This document shows, one piece after another, positions 5,867 through 13,638 of a DNA stretch of 64,000 nucleotides. This DNA comes from Chloroflexota bacterium (GTDB lineage Bacteria > Chloroflexota > Anaerolineae > Aggregatilineales > Phototrophicaceae), in assembly GCA_026707745.1 (NCBI GenBank), contig JAPOWG010000098.1, positions 4,241 through 68,240 of the forward strand. The letters are read 5' to 3'. The position numbers were made by a program, and so were the translations under genes. Each line of letters begins with the position of its first letter. Positions within the stretch are counted from its first letter, which is position 1. Under the pieces are notes generated by a model. That model ran no database searches. It was not told the origin of the DNA and was given only the letters and a program-made list of their open reading frames with translations.

Positions 5867-7108
5867 ATGTACAATGGCTGCCACAGCAATCTGGCAAGAG
5901 CAAGTGAAGTCAAATTCAGGGTGGGAAGAGTCGTGAAGCTGTTGGTGGTAGTTTCGTCGCTGGATCTTGCGCAGCCATATAGCGCCACACCCGCTTGGTG
6001 GCAGTTGCTAAAGGGCTTGTACGAACTAGGCGTAGACATCATCGCCACGCCGTACCAGGGCATGCCGGTGGAAAGTTTGTGGTGGCGATGCGAAGACAAT
6101 CCCGCCCGTTGGCAAGGCGAGGCATTTCGTTCTATGCGTGGCTTCGTCCGGCGCTGGAGGCGAGCGAATCCGGGCGAAGCGGTCGGCGAATCCCTGTCGG
6201 ATAGAGCGGTACGTGGCGCAGCGCGCGCATTCATTGCGCCGGTTTGGCGTCGACATCTGGAAGGGATTCTTAAGCGCAATCCCGATATTGATGCCTTGCT
6301 GTTTTTAACGGTACCGCTCAATCACCTGGTGGGCGTACCCCGATATCTCTCGCAGAAGTATGACCTGCCGGTGTTTTACTTTGATGGCGATGTTCCGGCC
6401 AGCTTGCCAAATATGCAGGGATTCGCCTCCGGCTTCCGCATCTACCAGGGGGCGGATGTGAAGGAATATACCGCGTTCATAAGCAACAGCACCGGGGGAG
6501 AGGCGCTCTTGAGGCAACTCGGCGTCGAACGGGTGCATACGGTGTGGTATGGCGCTGATCCCGAAGTCTTCAGCCGGGCGCCAGTTGCAGCGCAAGACAT
6601 TGATGTGCTCTTTTATGGGCACGGTCGCGAATATCGCTCGGAATGGATCGACCAGATGATAAGCGCGCCGTCCCGTCAGCTGACCGACGCACGGTTTGCT
6701 GTGCGCGGGAACAACCTGGGCGATATCGGCGACTGTGAAGCATTGCCATATCTAAGTTTTAGCAAGCTACGGGAATACGTATGCCGCAGCAAGCTCAATC
6801 TTTGCATCACGCGGGACGCGCACGCGAACGTAGCTTGTTCGTCTTCATCGCGCCCGTTTGAGTTGGCTGCGATGAGCGCATGCGTCGTCGCCAACCCCTA
6901 CCTGGGCCTGGAGACCTGGTTCGAGCCGGAGAAAGAGATTATCATTGTCAGTTCCGGCGAAGAGGCGATCGAACGCTATCGATTCTTGCTCGGCCATGAC
7001 AGCGCGCGGGAGTCTATCGGCCGGGCCGCGCGCGAGCGAGTCCTGAAGCAGCACACCTTTCGTCATCGCGCGCGTGAATTGCTTGCGATTGTGCGCCAAT
7101 ACATGTGA
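5867..7108 (+). CDS. CgeB-family / group-1-like glycosyltransferase (uncharacterised)
   Basis: The C-terminal half (LPYLSFSKLREYVCRSKLNLCITR...RPFELAAMSACVVANPY...EIIIVSSGEEAIERYRFLLGHDSARESIGRAARERVLKQHTFRHRA) resembles the CgeB/DUF3880-type glycosyltransferase C-terminus. The true start may be the GTG near 5933 (VKLLVVVSSLD). Confidence 0.55.
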   Translation: MYNGCHSNLARASEVKFRVGRVVKLLVVVSSLDLAQPYSATPAWWQLLKGLYELGVDIIATPYQGMPVESLWWRCEDNPARWQGEAFRSMRGFVRRWRRANPGEAVGESLSDRAVRGAARAFIAPVWRRHLEGILKRNPDIDALLFLTVPLNHLVGVPRYLSQKYDLPVFYFDGDVPASLPNMQGFASGFRIYQGADVKEYTAFISNSTGGEALLRQLGVERVHTVWYGADPEVFSRAPVAAQDIDVLFYGHGREYRSEWIDQMISAPSRQLTDARFAVRGNNLGDIGDCEALPYLSFSKLREYVCRSKLNLCITRDAHANVACSSSSRPFELAAMSACVVANPYLGLETWFEPEKEIIIVSSGEEAIERYRFLLGHDSARESIGRAARERVLKQHTFRHRARELLAIVRQYM

Positions 7109-7145
7109 GTCAGTAGACTTCATCATCCAAATGGGAGAATCAACG

Positions 7146-7988
7146 ATGTCCATAGATATTGGCAAGGCAAGCAGTTTTGTCCATCAGCATGGCACCTTAT
7201 TTGAACGCGCCTTGTTCGACTATCTATTTGCCGGGGGCAGCGGCGAACGAGTACAGGCCATCATCATGTGTTACAAGAATCCCGACGGCGGCTTTGGTCA
7301 CGGCTTCGAGCATGACATCAAAGCGCCGCATTCGCATCCATTAGCGTTGGAGTATCTACTCAGTGTAATGAAACATACGGGCATCGAGCCTGGCGCTATC
7401 CTGGACGGCGTTTCCGACTGGGTCGAGAGCCAGATGGACGAGGCTGGGAATCTGCGCAATCCGCCCGAGACGCGGCACTATCCGCTTGCGCCCTGGTGGC
7501 AGGAAGAGGGCGGCCAAACAATGCCGGATAGTATTGTCGCAAACTTGATACACTTCGATCGCGCCGAAGCTTCCCTGGTAAGGAAGACCGAACGCTGGGT
7601 CGCGGACAGGCATACGCTCGAGAGCATCCGAACTAATGAATGGCTGTTCATGGCGTACCATGCGGTCGATTTCTTTTTCGCAATTGATGAATATCCCGAC
7701 TTGGAGCGGTATCGCGCGGCTACGATCGAAAACGTGCTCGCATGCGCCAAGGCGGCGCCGGCAAGCCAGTACGATTCCTTGTTCGCCTTCGCGCCGACGC
7801 CGGATTCGGCAATCGCGAAAGCGTTGCCCGCCGATTTGCTGGTAAAATACCTTGATGTACTTGAAGGGGCCCAGACGGACGACGGTTGTTGGGTTGATCA
7901 ACATAACTTGCGGCAATGGTGGCCGATGACGACTATCAATGTCTTGCTAGCCTTGGAACGGTATGGTCGGTGGTCAGCGAATCGGTAG
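7146..7988 (+). CDS. hypothetical protein with prenyltransferase / terpene-cyclase-like (alpha-alpha toroid) repeat motifs
   Basis: The ORF track gives 7074..7988. The ATG at 7146 has GGAGA 7 nt upstream. Motifs YKNPDGGFGHGFEHD and QTDDGCWVDQ resemble the xxDGGW/F repeats of this fold. The assignment is tentative. Confidence 0.5.
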   Translation: MSIDIGKASSFVHQHGTLFERALFDYLFAGGSGERVQAIIMCYKNPDGGFGHGFEHDIKAPHSHPLALEYLLSVMKHTGIEPGAILDGVSDWVESQMDEAGNLRNPPETRHYPLAPWWQEEGGQTMPDSIVANLIHFDRAEASLVRKTERWVADRHTLESIRTNEWLFMAYHAVDFFFAIDEYPDLERYRAATIENVLACAKAAPASQYDSLFAFAPTPDSAIAKALPADLLVKYLDVLEGAQTDDGCWVDQHNLRQWWPMTTINVLLALERYGRWSANR

Positions 7989-8033: not shown

Positions 8034-8873
8034 TTGAGAGAGGTCGCTTCTGTGGCTATTGATTTCATCATTGAATACGATTGCGTTCCCAAAGTCCACT
8101 TAACTCCTGAAGGAATTCTGGAGCGTATCAAGGAGAAGGAACGCGCCCAAACCGTCATCCAATGGTTTCGAGAAGCCGGCGACGAGCGCCCTCCATCCGA
8201 AATGGGCTTTGAGTTTAGCCGCAGTTCGTTGGACGAACAATCAAGTAGACAACTGATCGTAGTCCAAGATTTACTGGATCACGCCGCCGCTCTGGATGCG
8301 CATGCCCATCATTGCTCTGCTTGTCCCGCGAATCGAAGCGGCTCTCCTTTTGGCTGCATGGGATTTATCCAGTATCCCATTAGCGCGCAAGCAGAAGCCT
8401 GGTTACTGGATCGACTGCCCGTACCTGACGAGCCGCTGGTTTGGCTGCTGTTGAAACAGGGCATACAACGGCTCGGCTACGACGGCTCATTTGTACGGGC
8501 ATTGCGGGAACTCGACAACCAGAACGAAGGTAGCGAGCGGACTTATTTTCTGTCGCCGGAAGCTCCGCAGAGGCGTTTGGGCGAACTTCGTGTTACGGGC
8601 GATCAGGCGCTTGAGATGATTTTTGGCGTTGGAGATCGCATCATACCAAATCATGCGGGCATACTCTTGTTGTTCTTTGACGCGATTGAACGCGACCTGG
8701 AAGCCTCGGAAATCCAGGGGATTTCGTCATTTGACCAGACTATACGCGAAGGATTCAAGTTTGAAATGGAAGCGGTCTCTACGGGACACGAAGGCATTCG
8801 CGAGATCATCTCGTTTTTTCATGCTTTGTATTTGGCTTGGAAACTGGACGTCTCGCTGTATGTGGATGCTTGA
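8034..8873 (+). CDS. hypothetical cytoplasmic protein with HHCSACP...GC motif
   Basis: 279-aa ORF with coding-like composition and no family I recognise. An alternative GTG start at 8052 is preceded by GAGAGG. It ends 15 nt before the next gene. Confidence 0.55.
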   Translation: MREVASVAIDFIIEYDCVPKVHLTPEGILERIKEKERAQTVIQWFREAGDERPPSEMGFEFSRSSLDEQSSRQLIVVQDLLDHAAALDAHAHHCSACPANRSGSPFGCMGFIQYPISAQAEAWLLDRLPVPDEPLVWLLLKQGIQRLGYDGSFVRALRELDNQNEGSERTYFLSPEAPQRRLGELRVTGDQALEMIFGVGDRIIPNHAGILLLFFDAIERDLEASEIQGISSFDQTIREGFKFEMEAVSTGHEGIREIISFFHALYLAWKLDVSLYVDA

Positions 8874-8888
8874 GCCGCTACCGAAGGC

Positions 8889-9494
8889 GTGATGAAGGAT
8901 TCGAAAACTGATATGCCGCAAAGAACTATTGCCTGGATCGATACCGTTCCTGAAGAGCGAGCCAACGGGGAATTGAAGCGCGCATATCGTCGCAGCGCCG
9001 ATCCGGTTTCCGGAAAGGTCGATCACATCATGCAGATTCACAGCTTGAATCCGGCTTCGTTAGTTGATCATCTGCACCTGTACAAGACCTTGATGTACGG
9101 CGATTCGCCCTTGAGTCGCATCCAGCGTGAAATGATCGGCGTGGTCGTGTCCGCCATCAACCGCTGCGAATACTGACTGCTGCACCATGCGAGGAATCTC
9201 CGTCAGTTGACTGGGGATAGAGATTGGACGGCGCAGATTGAGTCTGACTATCGCGGAGCGGATTTGACCCCGGCTGACCGACAGATGCTGGATTACGCGG
9301 CCAAGTTGACGCTCGCGCCCTGGCAAATGACCGAGAAGGATGTCATCGCATTAAGAGAGCTTGGTTTCAGCGATAGGGCGGTTCTGGATATCGCGCAAGT
9401 TGCCGCATATTACGCTTATGTCAATCGAATAGCCGACGGCTTGGGCGTGTCGCTGGAAGCGTATTGGGCGGATGGAAAAGAAGACTACGATTAA
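8889..9494 (+). CDS. AhpD/carboxymuconolactone-decarboxylase-family 'peroxidase-related enzyme' with an in-frame TGA (9174..9176) at the second Cys of the CxxC motif; candidate selenoprotein (C-E-Y-U)
   Basis: ORF-track fragments 8889..9176 and 9207..9494 are in the same frame, separated only by one TGA. The read-through gives ...VVVSAINRCEY[TGA]LLHHARNLRQL..., which fits the family signature S-x-x-N-x-C-x-Y-C-x-x-x-H. The combined length of about 201 aa is normal for this family. The C-terminal half (ADRQMLDYAAKLTLAPWQMTEKDVIALRELGFSDRAVLDIAQVAAYYAYVNRIADGLGV) is also typical. Confidence 0.7.
9198..9216 (+). promoter_or_regulatory. candidate bacterial SECIS-like hairpin downstream of the TGA at 9174
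   Basis: CUCC-GUC[AGUU]GAC-(U)-GGGG. This is a 7-bp stem (one G.U pair), a bulged U at 9212, and an apical loop AGUU containing GU. The stem starts 21 nt after the TGA. An alternative outer pairing is AAUCUC (9195-9200) with GAGAUU (9220-9225). Confidence 0.4.
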
Positions 9495-9500
9495 AAGCGC

Positions 9501-9629
9501 CTATCCCCGCGTGGCGAGCGCCAGCAGAACAAGAATCAACACGATGGTTACAATCGCAAAGACAGCATAAAACTGGGCAAAGCGCTTGCGAGCGTCCGAT
9601 CCTTCCTTGAAAATATCGCTCAGCTTCAT
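9501..9629 (-). CDS. possible small single-pass membrane protein (42 aa)
   Basis: MKLSDIFKEGSDARKRFAQFYAVFAIVTIVLILVLLALATRG has a charged head plus one hydrophobic helix. The RBS is weak, and it is taken from the longer track ORF 9501..9698. Speculative. Confidence 0.25.
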   Translation of the reverse strand: MKLSDIFKEGSDARKRFAQFYAVFAIVTIVLILVLLALATRG

Positions 9630-9720
9630 GATGACCATCCGGCATTTGCTGCAACCATTCCTCAGAATCAGCATAAATCCATTTTTTGCTGTTTGCAAAC
9701 GAAGGAAGTGTATTGAAGTC

Positions 9721-9767
9721 GGTTGAAAATCGTTTTAACCACCGAGGGGCGAGCCGACGGCTCGCCC
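9721..9767. other. two adjacent perfect hairpins in noncoding DNA
   Basis: GGTTGAAA-ATCG-TTTTAACC (9721-9740, 8 bp including one G.U pair) and GGGCGAGCC-GAC-GGCTCGCCC (9747-9767, 9 bp). The linker ACCACCGAGGGGCG also occurs at about 5639-5652, next to the tandem array. Confidence 0.6.
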
Positions 9768-9876
9768 AAAACAGCTTTTCGATAGTTTTGGTATTTTCTT
9801 TCATAGTGCAGTCATTCGCATTACTTTCTTGCAAGTACTGAGGGTACAGAGAAAAACCAACAGAGAAATATATTTT

Positions 9877-9923
9877 GCGGGCGTTTCAGCGGGTCGCGTA
9901 TACACTGACTGTCAAACGCCCGC
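9877..9923. repeat. hairpin-embedded fragment of the GGTCGCG/ACACTGAC repeat family
   Basis: GCGGGCGTTT (9877-9886) pairs with AAACGCCCGC (9914-9923). The loop reads cagcGGGTCGCGTATACACTGACTGTC, matching the family core. Confidence 0.6.
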
Positions 9924-10039
9924 ATACAAAAGGCCAAAGAGCGGGCAGCACGTCGTGCCTCCCCCGACAATGCGGAGCTTTTTTTGCGTGACTTACTTGG
10001 ATTTACTGAGAAAAGCAAGGCTGTACATTTCATCTTCAG

Positions 10040-10250
10040 TGATACAGATTACCCATTTCGGTTGAAATAAAGAACAACAGCCAGCCGACAGCCGGTAGGG
10101 GTGATCTATCAGATCGCCCGACGATAAGAAACTGAATGTGTATCGGGTGACTGGCGGTCCGTGTTAACAGTCGGTGTTTACGCGACCTAAGCGACCCACG
10201 CGACCAACTGTTGCGCGTAGACACCGCAGGCCAGTCGTCCGACCGGATCA
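10040..10250 (-). repeat. long copy of the GGTCGCG/ACACTGAC intergenic repeat family, inverted relative to the copy at about 50170-50325
   Basis: The reverse complement reads ...gtgtctacgcgcaacagttggtcgcgtgggtcgcttaggtcgcgtaaacaccgactg...cagtttcttatcgtcgggcgatct...cccctaccggctgtcggctggctgttgttctttatttcaacc. This aligns by eye with 50170-50325 (gtgtctatgcgcagcggttagtcgcc...cagtttttactcgtcgggcgatct...cccctgccggctgtcaggcggttgtttttctttatttcaacc). Confidence 0.75.
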
Positions 10251-10396
10251 CTGGTATTTTGGGTTAAGGATCTCATGTCGAAGTCTGGCAAAAGTAATTC
10301 AACCGAAAAGGATACACTGACAACGACGGTTGATATTTGTCCAAGGGCAGGGGTAGGGGTTACAATGGCTGCCAAAAGGAATTGGCCCCATACAAT

Positions 10397-11842
10397 ATGA
10401 CCCCAATACCTCGAGGTTACAGCGGATTTCTGCTGGTAGTGAAGAAGGACTGCAATACCTGCCAGTTGATTGAGACCGCCATCGCTGAATTACAGCGATC
10501 GGGCGCGCTGCGTGTGACTTCGCAGGACGATCCGCAGTTCCCGGCGGGAGTCCGTGATGTGAAAGACGATCGCGAACTTGAACAGTCCTATCACTTGAAC
10601 ATCGAAACGGTTCCCACGCTGATCGCATGCCAAGATGGCGTGGAACAGGAACGCCTTGTCGGCTGGTCGCGGGAGGACTGGCGGCGCCTGACTGGTATTC
10701 CCTCGCTGGGCACGGATCTTCCCCAATTCAGTCCAGGTTGTGGTTCCAGGACAGTTGAGCCTGGCATGCTGGATAAGCTGGCTTACAGGTTTGGCGACAC
10801 GGTTCTGCAAGCGCGTCGCATTGATGTAGCCGAGATGGAAGACGTCCATGAACTCATGTACGAGCGCGGCTGGTCCGACGGCTTGCCCCTGGTGCCGCCA
10901 AGCGAAGATCGCGTAATGCGTATGTTGGGCGGGACAAGCCGCGCGCCGGACGAGATAGTGGGAGTGATCCCGCCGGATCAGGCGCTGTGCACTGTGGAGA
11001 AAGTGACCATCAACGCGGTGATGGCGGGCTGCAAACCCGAATATCTTCCGGTTGTCTTGGCTGCGGTGGAAGCAGCTTGCCTCGACGAATTCTGTATGCA
11101 CGGGCTGCTGGCGACGACCTATTTCTCGGGGCCCATCGTCATCGTCAACGGACCGATCATCAACGAGATCGGGCTGAACTGGAGCACTAATGCGCTGGGG
11201 CAGGGAAACCGAGCCAATTCAACTATTGGGCGCGCCTTGCAACTGGTGATCCGAAATGTCGGCGGAGGCAAACCCGGGGGCGTCGATCGCGCGGCGCTAG
11301 GGCAGCCGGGTAAAGTCGGTTTCTGCTTTCCTGAGCGCGAACACGACTCATATTGGGAATCGCTGGCGGTCGAAAGGGGCTTTGCCCCGGAACAATCGAC
11401 GGTGACATTGTTCGCCGGCGACGGCGTCCACGGCATCGCCGATCAAAAGTCTCGCGAGCCAAAGTCCCTGACGCGCAGCCTTGCCATGACCCTGCGAACG
11501 GTCAAGCACGGCAAACTCTTTGGGGACGCCAGCGCGATGCTGATTGTCACGCCGGAGCATATGCGCGTCTTTCGAGAAGCCGGTTGGAGCAAAGCGCGTT
11601 TCCGCGAAGAGCTTGACAAATGTCTGAACTTCGACGGCTCGGAATTGATTCGCGGCGCCTCCCATATCGCCGAGGGCATGCCGGAGTCGTCTGCGGGACG
11701 CCGACTGACAAAGTTCGGGCCCGATGGTCTGTTAATTGTCCACACCGGCGGTTCCGCCGGCATGTGGTCCGCGGTGATTGGCGGCTGGGCCGCAACCGGA
11801 GCAAAAGGCAGTACACCGGTAACAGTGGCGATCAAGTCTTGA
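10397..11842 (+). CDS. thioredoxin-fold (C-N-T-C) domain fused to a ~380-aa uncharacterised domain
   Basis: The N-terminus FLLVVKKDCNTCQL...NIETVPTLIACQDG...VGW has a Trx-like CxxC plus a cis-Pro TVPT motif. The remainder (ERGWSDGLPLVPPSEDRV...INAVMAGCKPEYLPVVLAAVEA...) I cannot assign. The track ORF starts at TTG 10337; ATG 10397 is preferred but uncertain. Confidence 0.7.
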   Translation: MTPIPRGYSGFLLVVKKDCNTCQLIETAIAELQRSGALRVTSQDDPQFPAGVRDVKDDRELEQSYHLNIETVPTLIACQDGVEQERLVGWSREDWRRLTGIPSLGTDLPQFSPGCGSRTVEPGMLDKLAYRFGDTVLQARRIDVAEMEDVHELMYERGWSDGLPLVPPSEDRVMRMLGGTSRAPDEIVGVIPPDQALCTVEKVTINAVMAGCKPEYLPVVLAAVEAACLDEFCMHGLLATTYFSGPIVIVNGPIINEIGLNWSTNALGQGNRANSTIGRALQLVIRNVGGGKPGGVDRAALGQPGKVGFCFPEREHDSYWESLAVERGFAPEQSTVTLFAGDGVHGIADQKSREPKSLTRSLAMTLRTVKHGKLFGDASAMLIVTPEHMRVFREAGWSKARFREELDKCLNFDGSELIRGASHIAEGMPESSAGRRLTKFGPDGLLIVHTGGSAGMWSAVIGGWAATGAKGSTPVTVAIKS

Positions 11843-11870
11843 TGTTGTCTTTAAGTGAAAGGAGCGCAAA

Positions 11871-12386
11871 ATGTCCACCATTCTGGACCCAACAGGAGAA
11901 TTGCAGCCGGCGCGACGAGAGCGATTGCCGCGCCTGCCGGAGTTGGCAGGCAAAACTGTGGGGCTGCTGGATATCTCGAAGCCGCGGGGTGATGTCTTTC
12001 TCGATCGCCTGGAGCAACATCTAGGCGCGGGCGGCATCGCGGTTCGGCGTTACCAAAAGCCGACGTTCACGCGAATAGCGCCCGCCGATCTCAAATTTCA
12101 AATCGCGCGCGACTGCGACGTGGTGATCGAAGCGCTCGCTGATTGAGGATCCTGTACGTCGTGCAGTGTGCATGACATCAGTGATCTGGAATCGCGCGGG
12201 GTACCGGGCGTGTTCATCGCCTCGACCGAGTTTGTTGAAGCGGCGGAAGCGCAAGGGGTCGCCCTCGGCTTCGCGCCGGCGGCGCACTTTGTAGCGCATC
12301 CGATCCAAGATCGAAACGACGACGAGATTCGACTTCTGGCGGATACGGCCTATGAGGAGATTCTAGCGCAGATCGTAGAGAATTGA
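11871..12386 (+). CDS. 'UGSC'-motif protein with an in-frame TGA (12144..12146); candidate selenoprotein (U-G-S-C-T-S-C)
   Basis: Track fragments 11871..12146 and 12168..12386 share one frame across a single TGA. The read-through gives ...DCDVVIEALAD[TGA]GSCTSCSVHDISDLESRGVPGVFIASTEF..., about 171 aa. The [U/C]GSC motif is the one that, as I recall, names the RefSeq product class 'UGSC family (seleno)protein'. Confidence 0.72.
12158..12176 (+). promoter_or_regulatory. candidate bacterial SECIS hairpin downstream of the TGA at 12144
   Basis: GUCGUGC(A)-GUG-(U)GCAUGAC forms a 7-8 bp stem (one G.U pair) with an apical loop containing GU. Exactly 11 nt (12147-12157) separate the TGA from the stem base, which is the spacing known for the E. 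coli fdhF minimal SECIS. Confidence 0.5.
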
Positions 12387-12396
12387 GGGATGTGAA

Positions 12397-13638
12397 TCAC
12401 TGGTACCGGCTGATGACAACAGCGGTATTGTGTCCGCCGAAGCCAAAAGAGTTGCTCAATACGTGGTCGATGGGATGTGATTTGCCGACGTTGGGCGTAT
12501 AGTCGAGATCACAGTCCGGATCGGGCGTTTCGAGATTGATAGTCGGCGGGATGAAATTGTCTTCTATCGACTTGACGGCGAAGATCGCCTCAGTGGCCGC
12601 GGTAGCGCCCAGGATATGGCCTGTCATTGATTTGGTCGAGCTAATGGGAATGTTGTAGGCACCTTCGCCCAGCGCCAGCTTGATGGCCAGGGTTTCGCTC
12701 TTGTCGTTGAGTTGGGTGCCGGTGCCGTGCGCGTTGATATAGTCTATTCCCTCCGGTTCGAGCCGCGCTTCGCGCAGGGCGCGGCGCATAGCTTCCGCTG
12801 CGTCGACGCCGTCGGGATTAGGCGCCGTCACATGAAAGGCGTCCGAGGTGTGACCATAGCCGGTCAACTCGGCGTAGATATGCACACCGCGGTCCAGCGC
12901 GTGATCAAGGTCTTCCAGGATCAGCAAGGCGGCGCCTTCGGCCGCGACGAATCCGTCGCGATTGGCGTCGAAAGGACGCGCCGCTTTGTCGGGAACGTCC
13001 TCGGTATTTGTCAAGACTTTCATATTGTTAAAGCCGCTGATGACCATGGGCATGATGCAGGCTTCACTGCCGCCGGCCACCATCATTTTGGCGCGACCCA
13101 TGCGGATCAGGTCGGCAGCGTCACCCAAGGAATTGTTACTTGTGGCGCAAGCCGCCGTGATATTGTAATTGGGACCTTTCAGCCCGAAGTGCATGGACAC
13201 GCGCGAGCTGATGCCGTCGTGCAGCAAGGCGGGCACGATGACGGGGCTTACGCCGCGGTGGCCTTTGGCTTCGAAGCCCTGCAGCGCCTGCACAACGGTG
13301 ACGATGCCCCCGATGCCAGATCCGACGACGACGCCGACATCGTACATATTGTCGTCGTCGATCGTGATCTCGGCGTCGTTCAGGGCTTCTTCCGCAGCGA
13401 CCAGCGCCAGCATCTGCGCGCGGTCCATGCGGCGCACTTCGCGCCTGCCGAATTTAGCGATCAGATCCAGGTCCTTGACTTCGCCCGCCACACGGTTTTC
13501 AACCAAAGCCGTGTCGAACAAGGTGATCCAGTCGATGCCGGAGTTGCCAGCGCGAATATTCGCCCAGGCGTCGTCGACAGTGTTGCCGCAGGGGCAGACA
13601 AGACCCATTCCAGTGATGACCACACGTTTTTCAGCCAT
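12397..13638 (-). CDS. fabF: beta-ketoacyl-ACP synthase II
   Basis: 413 aa. Contains VVITGMGLVCPCGN..., an active-site context ...ACATS..., and a C-terminal HGTGT...SNSFGFGGHN, all classic KAS II features. Confidence 0.95.
   Translation of the reverse strand: MAEKRVVITGMGLVCPCGNTVDDAWANIRAGNSGIDWITLFDTALVENRVAGEVKDLDLIAKFGRREVRRMDRAQMLALVAAEEALNDAEITIDDDNMYDVGVVVGSGIGGIVTVVQALQGFEAKGHRGVSPVIVPALLHDGISSRVSMHFGLKGPNYNITAACATSNNSLGDAADLIRMGRAKMMVAGGSEACIMPMVISGFNNMKVLTNTEDVPDKAARPFDANRDGFVAAEGAALLILEDLDHALDRGVHIYAELTGYGHTSDAFHVTAPNPDGVDAAEAMRRALREARLEPEGIDYINAHGTGTQLNDKSETLAIKLALGEGAYNIPISSTKSMTGHILGATAATEAIFAVKSIEDNFIPPTINLETPDPDCDLDYTPNVGKSHPIDHVLSNSFGFGGHNTAVVISRYQ

Follow-up and report, generated by a model that had tools for sequence, protein, structure and literature searches.

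At positions 11871 to 12386 of a 64-kb stretch of Chloroflexota DNA (hereafter the window, meaning the whole 64,000 nucleotides analysed), an open reading frame on the forward strand is interrupted by a TGA codon. Does the locus encode a short protein that ends at this codon, or a single longer protein in which the codon is read as selenocysteine (Sec), and what might such a protein do?

The reading frame belongs to the UGSC family

Read from the sequence, the frame opens with an ATG at 11871 and contains GAT-TGA at 12141-12146, directly followed by GGA TCC TGT ACG TCG TGC, which encodes G-S-C-T-S-C. Between the internal TGA and the terminal TGA at 12384-12386, 79 codons are open. The coordinates of all the features are collected in Table 1.

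Membership of the UGSC family was taken to mean that a curated whole-protein cut-off is reached by a match covering both sides of the TGA. Model NF041046 ("UGSC family (seleno)protein") gave 147.9 bits against a cut-off of 125 over residues 27-167, and PF24696 gave 137.9 bits against a cut-off of 25 over residues 3-168; in both cases, the TGA lay inside the match. In addition to these scores, the conserved column of the gene carries the [U/C]-G-S-C motif, and a SECIS-type hairpin lies 3' of the UGA. The preliminary description of this DNA had recognized a UGSC-motif gene, had counted 80 codons in frame after the TGA and had proposed a search of the read-through protein against family models and a comparison with Cys-containing orthologues. 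The identification was borne out by both comparisons, since the cut-offs of the UGSC models were passed across both halves and the homologues are either truncated or, for the most part, cysteine at the TGA column; the codon count had to be corrected by one.

The 'UGSC-containing protein' goes back to Zhang and Gladyshev (PMC1976440, PMC2398784) and figures in the literature as a functionally uncharacterized selenoprotein family (PMC1976440, PMC2398784, PMC13188914). The family has been described bioinformatically since 2007-2008, and the gene at 11871-12386 is a new, ordinary and genuine member of it. It shares with the other members a length of about 170 aa, the D-U-G-S-C-T-S-C motif and the TGA at the Sec column, and the SECIS-type hairpin is common to it and 72 other distinct sequences. 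No difference of substance was found; the fold call alone departs from the literature, in which the fold is given as thioredoxin-like. Its identity to the copy in a metagenome-assembled genome of the Phototrophicaceae (Chloroflexota) is 88%. When the PDB was searched by sequence with the UGSC profile, the sole match, a chance one, paired 'CGSCTSC' with a TET3 zinc-finger peptide.

The best 80 genomic homologues, used for the comparisons below, come from Chloroflexota, Acidimicrobiia, Marinobacter/Halopseudomonas, Myxococcota, Alphaproteobacteria and others. Cultured carriers include Halopseudomonas oceani DSM 100277, Marinobacter lacisalsi CECT 7297 and Marinobacter daqiaonensis CGMCC 1.9167.

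Table 1. Position of the UGSC gene, its RNA elements and its upstream partner in the window.
Feature	Position	Strand	Remarks
Partner gene, 481 aa	10397..11842	+	Residue 21 (ATG) of the mechanical ORF 10337-11842 used as start
Partner N-terminal thioredoxin-like domain with C-N-T-C	about 10397-10741	+	AF2 model and weak thioredoxin matches
Partner C-terminal domain of ~360 aa	10754-11839	+	No Pfam or PDB match
Shine-Dalgarno-like AGGAG	11860..11864	+	6 nt 5' of the UGSC gene ATG; read from the sequence
UGSC-family selenoprotein gene	11871..12386	+	171 codons plus stop, Sec at codon 92; NF041046 and PF24696 matches
In-frame UGA, predicted Sec codon, motif D-U-G-S-C-T-S-C	12144..12146	+	Column comparison with homologues
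Upper SECIS hairpin GUCGUGCA-GUG-UGCAUGAC	12158..12176	+	Folding, conservation and covariation
Possible lower helix around the hairpin	12147..12187	+	12147-12154 pairing with 12179-12187 in the MFE structure

A SECIS-type hairpin follows the UGA

The gap between the UGA and the hairpin stem is exactly 11 nt (12147-12157), and the apical loop lies 19 nt from the UGA. The 19-mer folds with an energy of -9.1 kcal/mol and can be read in two ways, either as 8 bp closed by a GUG loop or as 7 bp closed by the loop AGUGU. It is devoid of the bulged U present in the upper stem of the E. coli fdhF element. According to the published consensus, bacterial SECIS elements have an apical loop of 3-9 nt with a G within its first two positions, an upper stem of 4-16 bp, an MFE of at most -7.5 kcal/mol and a UGA-loop spacing of 16-37 nt (PMC13188914). 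All these constraints, which are those of the bSECISearch model, are satisfied here. Like the consensus element of Zhang and Gladyshev and the minimal SECIS of E. coli fdhF, the structure is a coding-region stem-loop located directly after the UGA, and its loop A-G-U-G-U follows the pattern N1-G-[G/U]-N-N2, in which N1 and N2 are paired. A SECIS-like hairpin with an 11-nt spacing and GU in its loop had been pointed out in the preliminary description; it agrees with all four published constraints, and its conservation is accompanied by covariation.

Taken alone, the local fold stands out only moderately (12140-12200: -23.2 kcal/mol, z = -2.3, with 2 of 200 shuffled sequences folding as well), and the comparative evidence is much stronger. 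Almost all homologues have the hairpin in an unchanged register, 96.2% of the cells being paired. Three of the eight pairs show changes on both sides and another three are invariant. Pair 18-30 occurs as G-C, G-U or A-U and pair 21-27 changes from C-G to U-A, in both cases without a single unpaired cell. At the codon level, TCA is found only with CAT, and TGT goes with ACA where TGC goes with GTG. The covariation score was 0.180, compared with 0.138 in shuffled alignments (none of 500 reached 0.180); the slid controls did not exceed 0.10.

Since the stem overlaps the strongly conserved codons S-C-S-V-H-D, part of the hairpin conservation arises from constraint on the protein. It could be argued that the gene does encode a selenoprotein while the hairpin is a mere by-product of these codons, the true recoding signal being elsewhere or of a different kind. 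The construction of the stem from the codons of a nearly invariant T-S-C-S-V-H-D, the three pairs that never vary, the modest z value of the fold and the persistence of the hairpin in L084, a close Cys-type gene, all go in this direction. However, the synonymous and substituted positions change in a compensatory manner, the geometry fits the published consensus, and the distant Cys-type genes have lost the stem (0.0 kcal/mol) despite keeping G-S-C-T-S-C. The by-product explanation is consequently unlikely, although it is the most serious of the alternatives considered in this work. Scoring with a covariance model, also proposed beforehand, separated the gene from the distant Cys-type genes in the same manner (75.5 bits versus 23-28 bits), the former value being partly obtained by construction as the gene itself was included in the model alignment.

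Assignment of the lower helix is tentative. The three pairs adjoining the upper helix are paired in 79.9% of the cells across homologues; one pair displays double changes, yet 39 of 73 cells are unpaired at this same pair, and the register is poorly conserved. Nothing relevant was returned by Rfam, either for the whole window at the gathering threshold or for 8800-12500 at E <= 10; this collection is not known to contain a general bacterial SECIS model. The assignment of the upper hairpin to the bacterial SECIS elements on the basis of its geometry is strongly supported, and a Chloroflexota SelB is predicted to bind it.

The UGSC gene is paired with a thioredoxin-domain gene

In the window, the UGSC gene is flanked by the gene of a thioredoxin-domain protein, its partner, and by that of a FabF-like ketoacyl synthase. 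In 78 of the 80 UGSC loci, the gene directly upstream, in the same orientation, is a homologue of the partner gene; partner homologues also occur 5' of Cys-type UGSC genes, with a 4-nt stop/start overlap. The UGSC gene and the gene of the thioredoxin-domain protein are therefore a conserved two-gene unit. No third conserved neighbour was detected across the 80 loci, where synteny is otherwise lineage-specific (for instance, a MutY-like gene in 28 loci). The other window neighbours (AhpD-like, FabF-like and glycosyltransferase genes) stand beside UGSC in just 2-4 of the 80 loci and are not conserved.

The partner has more than 8000 database relatives of about 481 aa, two of which are named 'thioredoxin family protein' by NCBI. 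Its two domains are joined by a linker with an invariant P-G-C-G-S. The AF2 model is confident for residues 1-115 only, which adopt a thioredoxin-like fold; for residues 116-481, the pLDDT is below 50, probably because the alignment (>=69% identity) was too shallow. With the partner profile, the PDB matches were thioredoxins only, all on the N-terminal domain. The C-terminal domain contains invariant Asp, Cys, Asn and Arg residues; it had no match in Pfam or NCBIfam, even at E <= 10, and a broader profile of this domain found nothing in the PDB. Invariant Cys residues of the partner occur in an A-G-C and in a C-x-A-E motif. Among the representative clusters, of which more than 5000 are available, this C-terminal domain is fused to UGSC in six and to AhpC/TSA-redoxin domains in seven others. 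A UGSC/Unknown_1 fusion is depicted in Figure S1A of PMC2398784; Unknown_1 may correspond to the C-terminal domain of the partner.

The predicted fold of the UGSC protein is not that of a thioredoxin

A Cys homologue with 62% identity was modelled in place of the read-through protein. The AF2 model (pLDDT 90.7) consists of five consecutive beta-alpha units. The Foldseek top 50 in the PDB comprised flavodoxin, CheY-like receiver, B12-binding and dipicolinate synthase B domains, and no thioredoxin. The UGSC protein is thus predicted to be a five-stranded flavodoxin/Rossmann-like alpha/beta domain, in which U-G-S-C would lie where strand 3 ends and helix 3 begins. In its five beta-alpha units, predicted to run parallel, the model resembles the three-layer alpha/beta domains of this type, and Foldseek gives E = 3e-4 to 1e-3 with a probability of ~1.0. 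It differs from them in several respects: the TM-scores do not exceed 0.4-0.5, a motif for binding flavin or B12 is not apparent, and conservation centres on the U-G-S-C-T-S-C loop.

Membership of the thioredoxin fold was rejected on the basis of this predicted topology and of the Foldseek matches. A thioredoxin-fold thiol oxidoreductase acting alone would be in line with the thioredoxin-like fold stated in PMC2398784 and with the U-x-x-C motif, typical of thioredoxin-fold selenoproteins. Apart from the topology, a solo role is hard to reconcile with the near-universal adjacent partner and with the fusions, and this explanation is quite improbable.

The UGA is very probably read as selenocysteine

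A TGA is present at the Sec column in 80 of the 80 best genomic homologues. Among the 14 full-length database homologues, this column is occupied by Cys in 11, W in two and R in one; most of the other database entries are proteins of about 94 aa, ending just before the Sec column. The assignment of the UGA at codon 92 to a Cys/Sec column, with conserved coding sequence 3' of it, is strongly supported. Selenocysteine is very probably inserted at this codon, aided by the conserved RNA hairpin.

If the TGA were a true stop, the locus would be a pseudogene or else a gene of 91 aa, with the sequence beyond it non-coding or translated separately. Gene callers routinely end at this position, as illustrated by the N-terminal halves that make up most database entries, and the window shows no Sec machinery: selA, selB, selD and tRNA(Sec) were not found in a scan covering all but several of its smaller ORFs, and a tRNA scan of the 64 kb detected no tRNA, hence no selC. 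Against this, the 79 codons following the TGA are conserved at the protein level in all 80 loci and across phyla, the two family models cover the downstream half, and the full-length homologues have Cys at the column. In a pseudogene, neither the TGA nor the openness of the frame after it would have been kept in distant lineages. A true stop is for these reasons very improbable. The least probable of all the alternatives is that the TGA stands for another amino acid (e.g. Trp or Gly, under an alternative code) or for a sequencing error of TGC/TGT: W and R do occur at the column, probably through gene calling under a different code or as real variants, but TGA terminates the UGSC gene as well as the partner gene and is accordingly an ordinary stop in this organism, Cys predominates in the full-length homologues, and 80 independent assemblies carry the TGA with a conserved SECIS-like hairpin after it.

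An AhpD-like gene (8889-9494), situated 2.4 kb upstream of the UGSC gene, has an in-frame TGA where Sec is known to occur, within a CxxU motif. When the window was scanned for genes with an in-frame TGA and Cys, Ser or Thr nearby, the only credible ones were the UGSC and AhpD-like genes. As a second selenoprotein gene, the latter provides indirect support for the use of Sec in this genome.

Because gene callers would normally yield a 91-aa fragment, which has been the fate of most database relatives, the correct annotation of the locus is a single 171-aa selenoprotein. The same correction is needed for the AhpD-like gene.

A local resemblance to selenoprotein B

A likeness of the Sec region to that of GrdB/PrdB had been suggested from the outset. 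As a claim of membership of the selenoprotein B family (GrdB/GrdF/PrdB), it does not hold. The NCBIfam models GrdB (TIGR01917) and GrdF (NF040794) gave only 13.1 bits (cut-off 602) and 13.0 bits (cut-off 800), with E about 0.03, and PF07355 (Pfam GRDB) had no match, even at E <= 10. Furthermore, the UGSC protein has 171 aa compared with about 240-430 aa, and its partner is a thioredoxin-domain protein with an additional unclassified domain, not a pyruvoyl proprotein of the PrdA/GrdE type. UGSC hosts are mostly aerobic environmental bacteria, not amino-acid-fermenting anaerobes.

The likeness stands only as a weak, local similarity. The weak GrdB/GrdF matches align exactly residues 78-119 with model positions 333-377. 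The profile was also compared by hhalign with 17 marine PrdB-like/GrdB sequences (PMC2398784, Dataset S1), U being set to C on both sides. The comparison with the marine PrdB-like sequences gave a score of 29.3 over 97 columns (pairwise E = 5.4e-4, probability 30%), with the Sec column falling on the Sec column. The reversed template scored 12.2; column-shuffled templates, a lenient null, had a mean of 11.1 (sd 2.4, maximum 19.0), and none of 150 reached 29.3. At the sequence level, the Sec-bearing strand-U-x-x-C-helix unit thus appears to share a weak but non-random, local resemblance with selenoprotein B. In both, U-x-x-C directly follows a hydrophobic beta-strand, preceded by an acidic residue and V-D, and is followed by a helix, then by E-x-x-G-[IV]-P-x-V and a further strand. 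Both are also taken to act together with a second, substrate-handling protein. A thioredoxin-type reductant serves the Grd/Prd reductases and would serve UGSC as well. A literature search found no paper on a solved proline reductase structure.

Proposed role of the UGSC protein and its partner

The best explanation, which we hold to be highly likely, is that the locus encodes a 171-residue UGSC selenoprotein, the UGA of which is decoded via the SECIS-type hairpin and which would serve as a redox subunit for the upstream partner. In the proposed mechanism, the stem-loop would bring in SelB together with its Sec-tRNA(Sec), and the UGA would be read as Sec. Sec92 and Cys95 of the U-x-x-C motif would then form a redox-active selenol/thiol pair, cycling through a selenenylsulfide. 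The UGSC protein would be a redox subunit dedicated to the protein encoded directly upstream, whose 360-aa C-terminal domain may be the catalytic or substrate-binding part and whose thioredoxin-like CxxC domain may relay electrons to or from the UGSC centre. By analogy, such a division of labour would resemble that of the selenoprotein-B-type reductases.

A broader proposal, possible rather than probable, is that UGSC and its partner constitute a widespread two-component Se-dependent oxidoreductase of aerobic marine and soil bacteria. UGSC would be a minimal, distant relative of the GrdB/PrdB Sec module, the unclassified domain would handle the substrate, and tethered thioredoxin or peroxiredoxin-like domains would recycle the selenenylsulfide.

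Several handles are available to find the substrate: the near-obligate thioredoxin-domain partner, the fusions of UGSC, thioredoxin-like and peroxiredoxin-like domains to one and the same unclassified domain, the non-thioredoxin fold and the weak link to selenoprotein B. If the two-component reading is true, 'selenoprotein-B-type' reductive chemistry would extend well beyond the amino-acid-fermenting anaerobes.

Membership of the UGSC family and the in-frame UGA

In order to score the read-through product of the UGSC gene against family models, U was set to C. The protein matched NCBIfam NF041046 'UGSC family (seleno)protein' at 147.9 bits (cut-off 125; residues 27-167) and Pfam PF24696 'UGSC family' at 137.9 bits (residues 3-168). 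Both matches run across the internal TGA, and the two halves of the gene thus belong to one family model. After this TGA, G-S-C-T-S-C-S-V-H-D... continues in frame for 79 codons; the preliminary description was right about the open frame and had counted 80.

Among 5.8 billion proteins searched, 3133 relatives were detected. Lengths were taken from the 120 that were listed: 14 have full length (171-182 aa), and the other 106 have about 94-115 aa. The six short relatives that were aligned all finish at ...A-L-A-D, which is the expected output of a gene caller at a Sec codon. In the 14 full-length relatives, the Sec column is occupied by Cys (11), Trp (2) or Arg (1). For the Trp entries of this alignment (A1), P0001 and P0005, the gene caller used by the depositor probably applied genetic code 4 or 25 to TGA; the Arg codon of P0003 is possibly CGA.

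When one genome per species was scanned, at least 599 loci were found, the best 80 of which were analyzed. These 80 belong to Chloroflexota, Acidimicrobiia and other Actinomycetota, Marinobacter, Halopseudomonas, other Gammaproteobacteria, Alphaproteobacteria, Myxococcota, Hydrogenedentota and others, the top homologue coming from a Phototrophicaceae MAG (88% identity). All of them carry TGA at the Sec column and continue in frame with G-S-C-T-[ST]-C. An alternative genetic code was ruled out as the explanation of the internal TGA, because TGA is an ordinary stop in the window, where it terminates both the UGSC gene and the gene directly upstream (the partner gene). The position of the UGA at a Cys/Sec column and the coding of one 171-aa protein of the UGSC family are strongly supported. 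The UGSC-motif selenoprotein gene was correctly recognized in the preliminary description, whose main interpretation is supported; the gene adds a new member to a selenoprotein family that had been catalogued before.

Features of the UGSC locus in window coordinates
Feature	Position	Strand	Remark
ORF closely upstream of AhpD-like gene	7074-7988	+	304 aa
ORF closely upstream of AhpD-like gene	8034-8873	+	279 aa; motifs H-H-C-S-A-C-P and G-C-M-G
AhpD-like selenoprotein gene	8889-9494, TGA 9174-9176	+	in-frame TGA in I-N-R-C-E-Y-U-L-L-H-H
Partner gene	ORF 10337-11842; start 10397 according to homologues	+	481 aa; directly upstream of UGSC gene
Partner C-terminal domain	10754-11839	+	about 350-360 residues; large family
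AGGAG ahead of UGSC-gene ATG	11860-11864	+	sequence read directly
UGSC gene ORF	11871 (ATG) to 12384-12386 (TGA)	+	sequence read directly
Internal in-frame TGA of UGSC gene	12144-12146	+	after ...I-E-A-L-A-D
Possible lower helix	12147-12154 with 12179-12187	+	MFE structure; register poorly conserved
Hairpin GUCGUGCA-GUG-UGCAUGAC	12158-12176	+	exactly 11 nt past TGA; sequence read directly
FabF-like beta-ketoacyl synthase gene	12397-13638	-	converges on UGSC gene; stop codons 10 nt apart

The probable recoding hairpin

The SECIS-like hairpin that had been read in the sequence, with its 11-nt spacing and a GU in the loop, proved to be conserved with covariation and to agree with the published consensus for bacterial SECIS elements in each of its four constraints (PMC13188914). 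It has an apical loop GUG (or A-GUG-U), an 8-bp stem and 19 nt from UGA to loop, the 19-mer having a folding energy of -9.1 kcal/mol; A-GUG-U fits the loop pattern N1-G-[G/U]-N-N2 quoted in PMC13188914. Folding of nucleotides 12140-12200 gave -23.2 kcal/mol (z = -2.3, with 2 of 200 shuffles equally good), which is moderate on its own. The hairpin region had no match in Rfam.

The covariation analysis used 60-nt segments that begin with the TGA, from the window and from each of the 80 loci; these comprise 73 distinct sequences in a gap-free alignment. In the upper helix (columns 15-22 with 26-33), 96.2% of the cells are paired and both sides vary in three of the eight pairs. Pair 18-30 is G-C in 41 sequences, G-U in 25 and A-U in 7, and pair 21-27 is C-G in 68 and U-A in 5, neither being ever unpaired; pair 15-33 is G-C in 63 and A-U in 3. 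The covariation score of the whole tested structure (upper helix and three lower pairs) was 0.180, against 0.138 ± 0.006 after shuffling (0/500 reached 0.180) and at most 0.103 with slid partners. The paired changes affect codon positions that are either synonymous or substituted: TCA is always accompanied by CAT, and TGC-AGT-GTG gives way to TGT-TGT-ACA. Conservation of the protein does not by itself account for such changes.

A covariance model trained on the 73 sequences, the window's own included, found a single site in the window at 75.5 bits, compared with 23-28 bits for distant Cys-type genes. Two distant Cys-type genes keep G-S-C-T-S-C and form no stem in that register (0.0 kcal/mol). 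Locus L084 (1228-1288 of a JGI metagenome contig), which encodes the database protein P0002, is Cys-type with TGT for TGA and S-V-H-D, and its product is 62% identical to the window protein; it keeps the full hairpin (65.4 bits with the covariance model) and resembles either a gene recently converted from Sec to Cys or a Sec gene in a variant sequence. Support is strong for a SECIS-type hairpin that is conserved and canonically spaced from the UGA.

An AhpD-like gene with an in-frame UGA

The TGA of the AhpD-like gene stands where AhpD-like selenoproteins have the U of CxxU. When U was replaced by C, its product matched TIGR01926 'peroxidase-related enzyme' at 146.9 bits (cut-off 81.8), the match crossing the TGA. 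This gene gives indirect support to Sec decoding in the host. A systematic scan of the window found no other credible in-frame-TGA gene; the 64 kb hold no tRNA gene, and no resemblance to selA, selB or selD was seen among the larger ORFs scanned. Gene callers would cut the AhpD-like gene into two ORFs of about 95 aa each. About 20 nt past its TGA begins a possible SECIS stem-loop (AUCUCCGUC-AGUU-GAC.GGGGAU), in a region that folds no better than shuffles (z = -0.48). The two ORFs closely upstream are without Pfam or NCBIfam match and are conserved beside UGSC in just 3-4 of the 80 loci.

The partner gene and its C-terminal domain

A partner homologue is found at the same position and strand in 78 of the 80 loci, across which there is no third conserved neighbour. 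It also lies upstream of Cys-type UGSC genes, where the end of the partner gene and the beginning of the UGSC gene share 4 nt. The near-obligate genomic pairing of the UGSC gene with a Trx-domain partner gene is strongly supported.

Over 8000 relatives of the partner, with about 481 aa, are present in the databases; among those listed, two are named 'thioredoxin family protein' and none has a precomputed Pfam domain. Its N-terminal 115 residues or so gave weak thioredoxin matches and were modelled as a confident Trx-like domain with an invariant C-x-x-C, here C-N-T-C. For the C-terminal domain (about 360 residues), there was no Pfam, NCBIfam or PDB match, and AF2 with a shallow alignment gave no fold. 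An exhaustive HMMER search with this domain recovered 5538 representative clusters at E <= 1e-3, including stand-alone proteins of about 350 aa and proteins of about 710 aa, perhaps duplicated forms, with two or three matched stretches. Six clusters (P0369, P0351, P0379, P0343, P0315 and P0380) bear an N-terminal UGSC domain (PF24696 89-159 bits), mostly Cys-type (C/G/A-D-C-G-S-C-T-[SA]-W), seven bear an N-terminal AhpC/TSA-redoxin domain, and fusions to Trx-like domains also occur. A fusion of UGSC to a domain named Unknown_1 was reported for some sequences in the GOS paper (PMC2398784), and the UGSC fusions found here are probably this 'UGSC/Unknown_1' form.

Adjacency and gene fusion are classic evidence that UGSC and the partner C-terminal domain work together. 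Since the domain is repeatedly tethered to Trx-like, Prx-like or UGSC modules, its associations point to thiol/selenol redox chemistry. Among 30 diverse members, three motifs hold the invariant residues: an Asp and a Pro of G-W-x-D-G-L-P-V-V-P-P-T, A-G-C within A-V-M-A-G-C, and Gly, Asn, Gly and Arg in and around R-A-N-A-T-I-G-R-A. One Glu, one Trp and a further Cys (x-C-x-A-E) are almost invariant.

Predicted fold and relation to selenoprotein B

The UGSC family was taken as Trx-like in 2008 (PMC2398784). P0002 was modelled from a 34-sequence alignment (mean pLDDT 90.7, pTM 0.85) as five consecutive beta-alpha units, with the Cys/Sec where strand 3 ends and helix 3 starts. Foldseek matched this model in the PDB to flavodoxin, flavodiiron flavodoxin domains, CheY-like receivers, B12-binding domains and dipicolinate synthase B (E = 3e-4 to 1e-3, TM 0.4-0.5), thioredoxin being absent from the top 50. 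From the five units and these matches, the predicted fold therefore looks flavodoxin/Rossmann-like rather than Trx-like.

A resemblance to GrdB/PrdB had also been suggested, and it holds for the Sec region, not for family membership. Selenoprotein B family membership failed on score, length and gene context; Pfam GRDB (PF07355) gave no match even at E <= 10. At the same threshold, NCBIfam gave weak matches, both on the Sec region, to GrdF sarcosine reductase NF040794 (E = 0.029, about 13 bits, cut-off 800; residues 80-119 on model positions 339-377 of 435) and to glycine reductase selenoprotein B TIGR01917 (E = 0.034, about 13 bits, cut-off 602; residues 78-119 on 333-373 of 431). Marine PrdB-like and GrdB sequences, U included, were taken from Dataset S1 of PMC2398784. 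One of them reads D-D-V-D-V-V-L-L-V-P-N-U-P-V-C-H-Q-T-V-S-L-V-A-R-H-L-E-A-N-K-I-P-T-V-I-A-G-S, and the window counterpart is R-D-C-D-V-V-I-E-A-L-A-D-U-G-S-C-T-S-C-S-V-H-D-I-S-D-L-E-S-R-G-V-P-G-V-F-I-A-S-T. When the UGSC alignment was compared with 17 such sequences by hhalign, Sec fell on Sec (P = 0.007 for the first alignment). Addition of the UGSC domains of the fusion proteins gave a score of 29.3 (pairwise E = 5.4e-4, probability 30%, 97 columns), against a mean of 11.1 (sd 2.4, maximum 19.0) for 150 column-shuffled templates, a lenient null, and 12.2 for the reversed template; U had been set to C on both sides. The likeness, local and weak, is real and not random, and suggests a strand-UxxC-helix-strand module, shared or convergent. 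In the U-x-x-C-x-x-C arrangement that had been likened to GrdB/PrdB, U-x-x-C is common to both, whereas the second Cys is a UGSC feature, H, T or N following U-x-x-C in those marine PrdB-like sequences that were inspected.

Proposed mechanism and significance

In the mechanism that we propose, SelB on the hairpin would bring Sec-tRNA(Sec) to UGA-92. Where helix 3 has its N-terminus, Sec92 and Cys95 would cycle between selenol/thiol and selenenylsulfide, and Cys98 may serve as a third redox or metal ligand. The UGSC protein would dock on the partner's C-terminal domain, which may carry out substrate chemistry via its invariant Cys, Asp, Asn and Arg, and the Trx-like CxxC domain would serve as an electron relay that links UGSC to the cellular thiol pool. 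This division of labour would be that of glycine and proline reductases.

The Olavius symbiont study (PMC1976440) counted the 'UGSC-containing protein' among selenoproteins of unknown function, and recent reviews link UGSC to NF041046 and call the functions of such families uncharacterised (PMC13188914, PMC9312934). The fold, the conserved partner with its fusion variants, the weak selenoprotein B link and the neighbouring AhpD-like selenoprotein are added observations, and constitute useful leads to the function of a family known since 2007.
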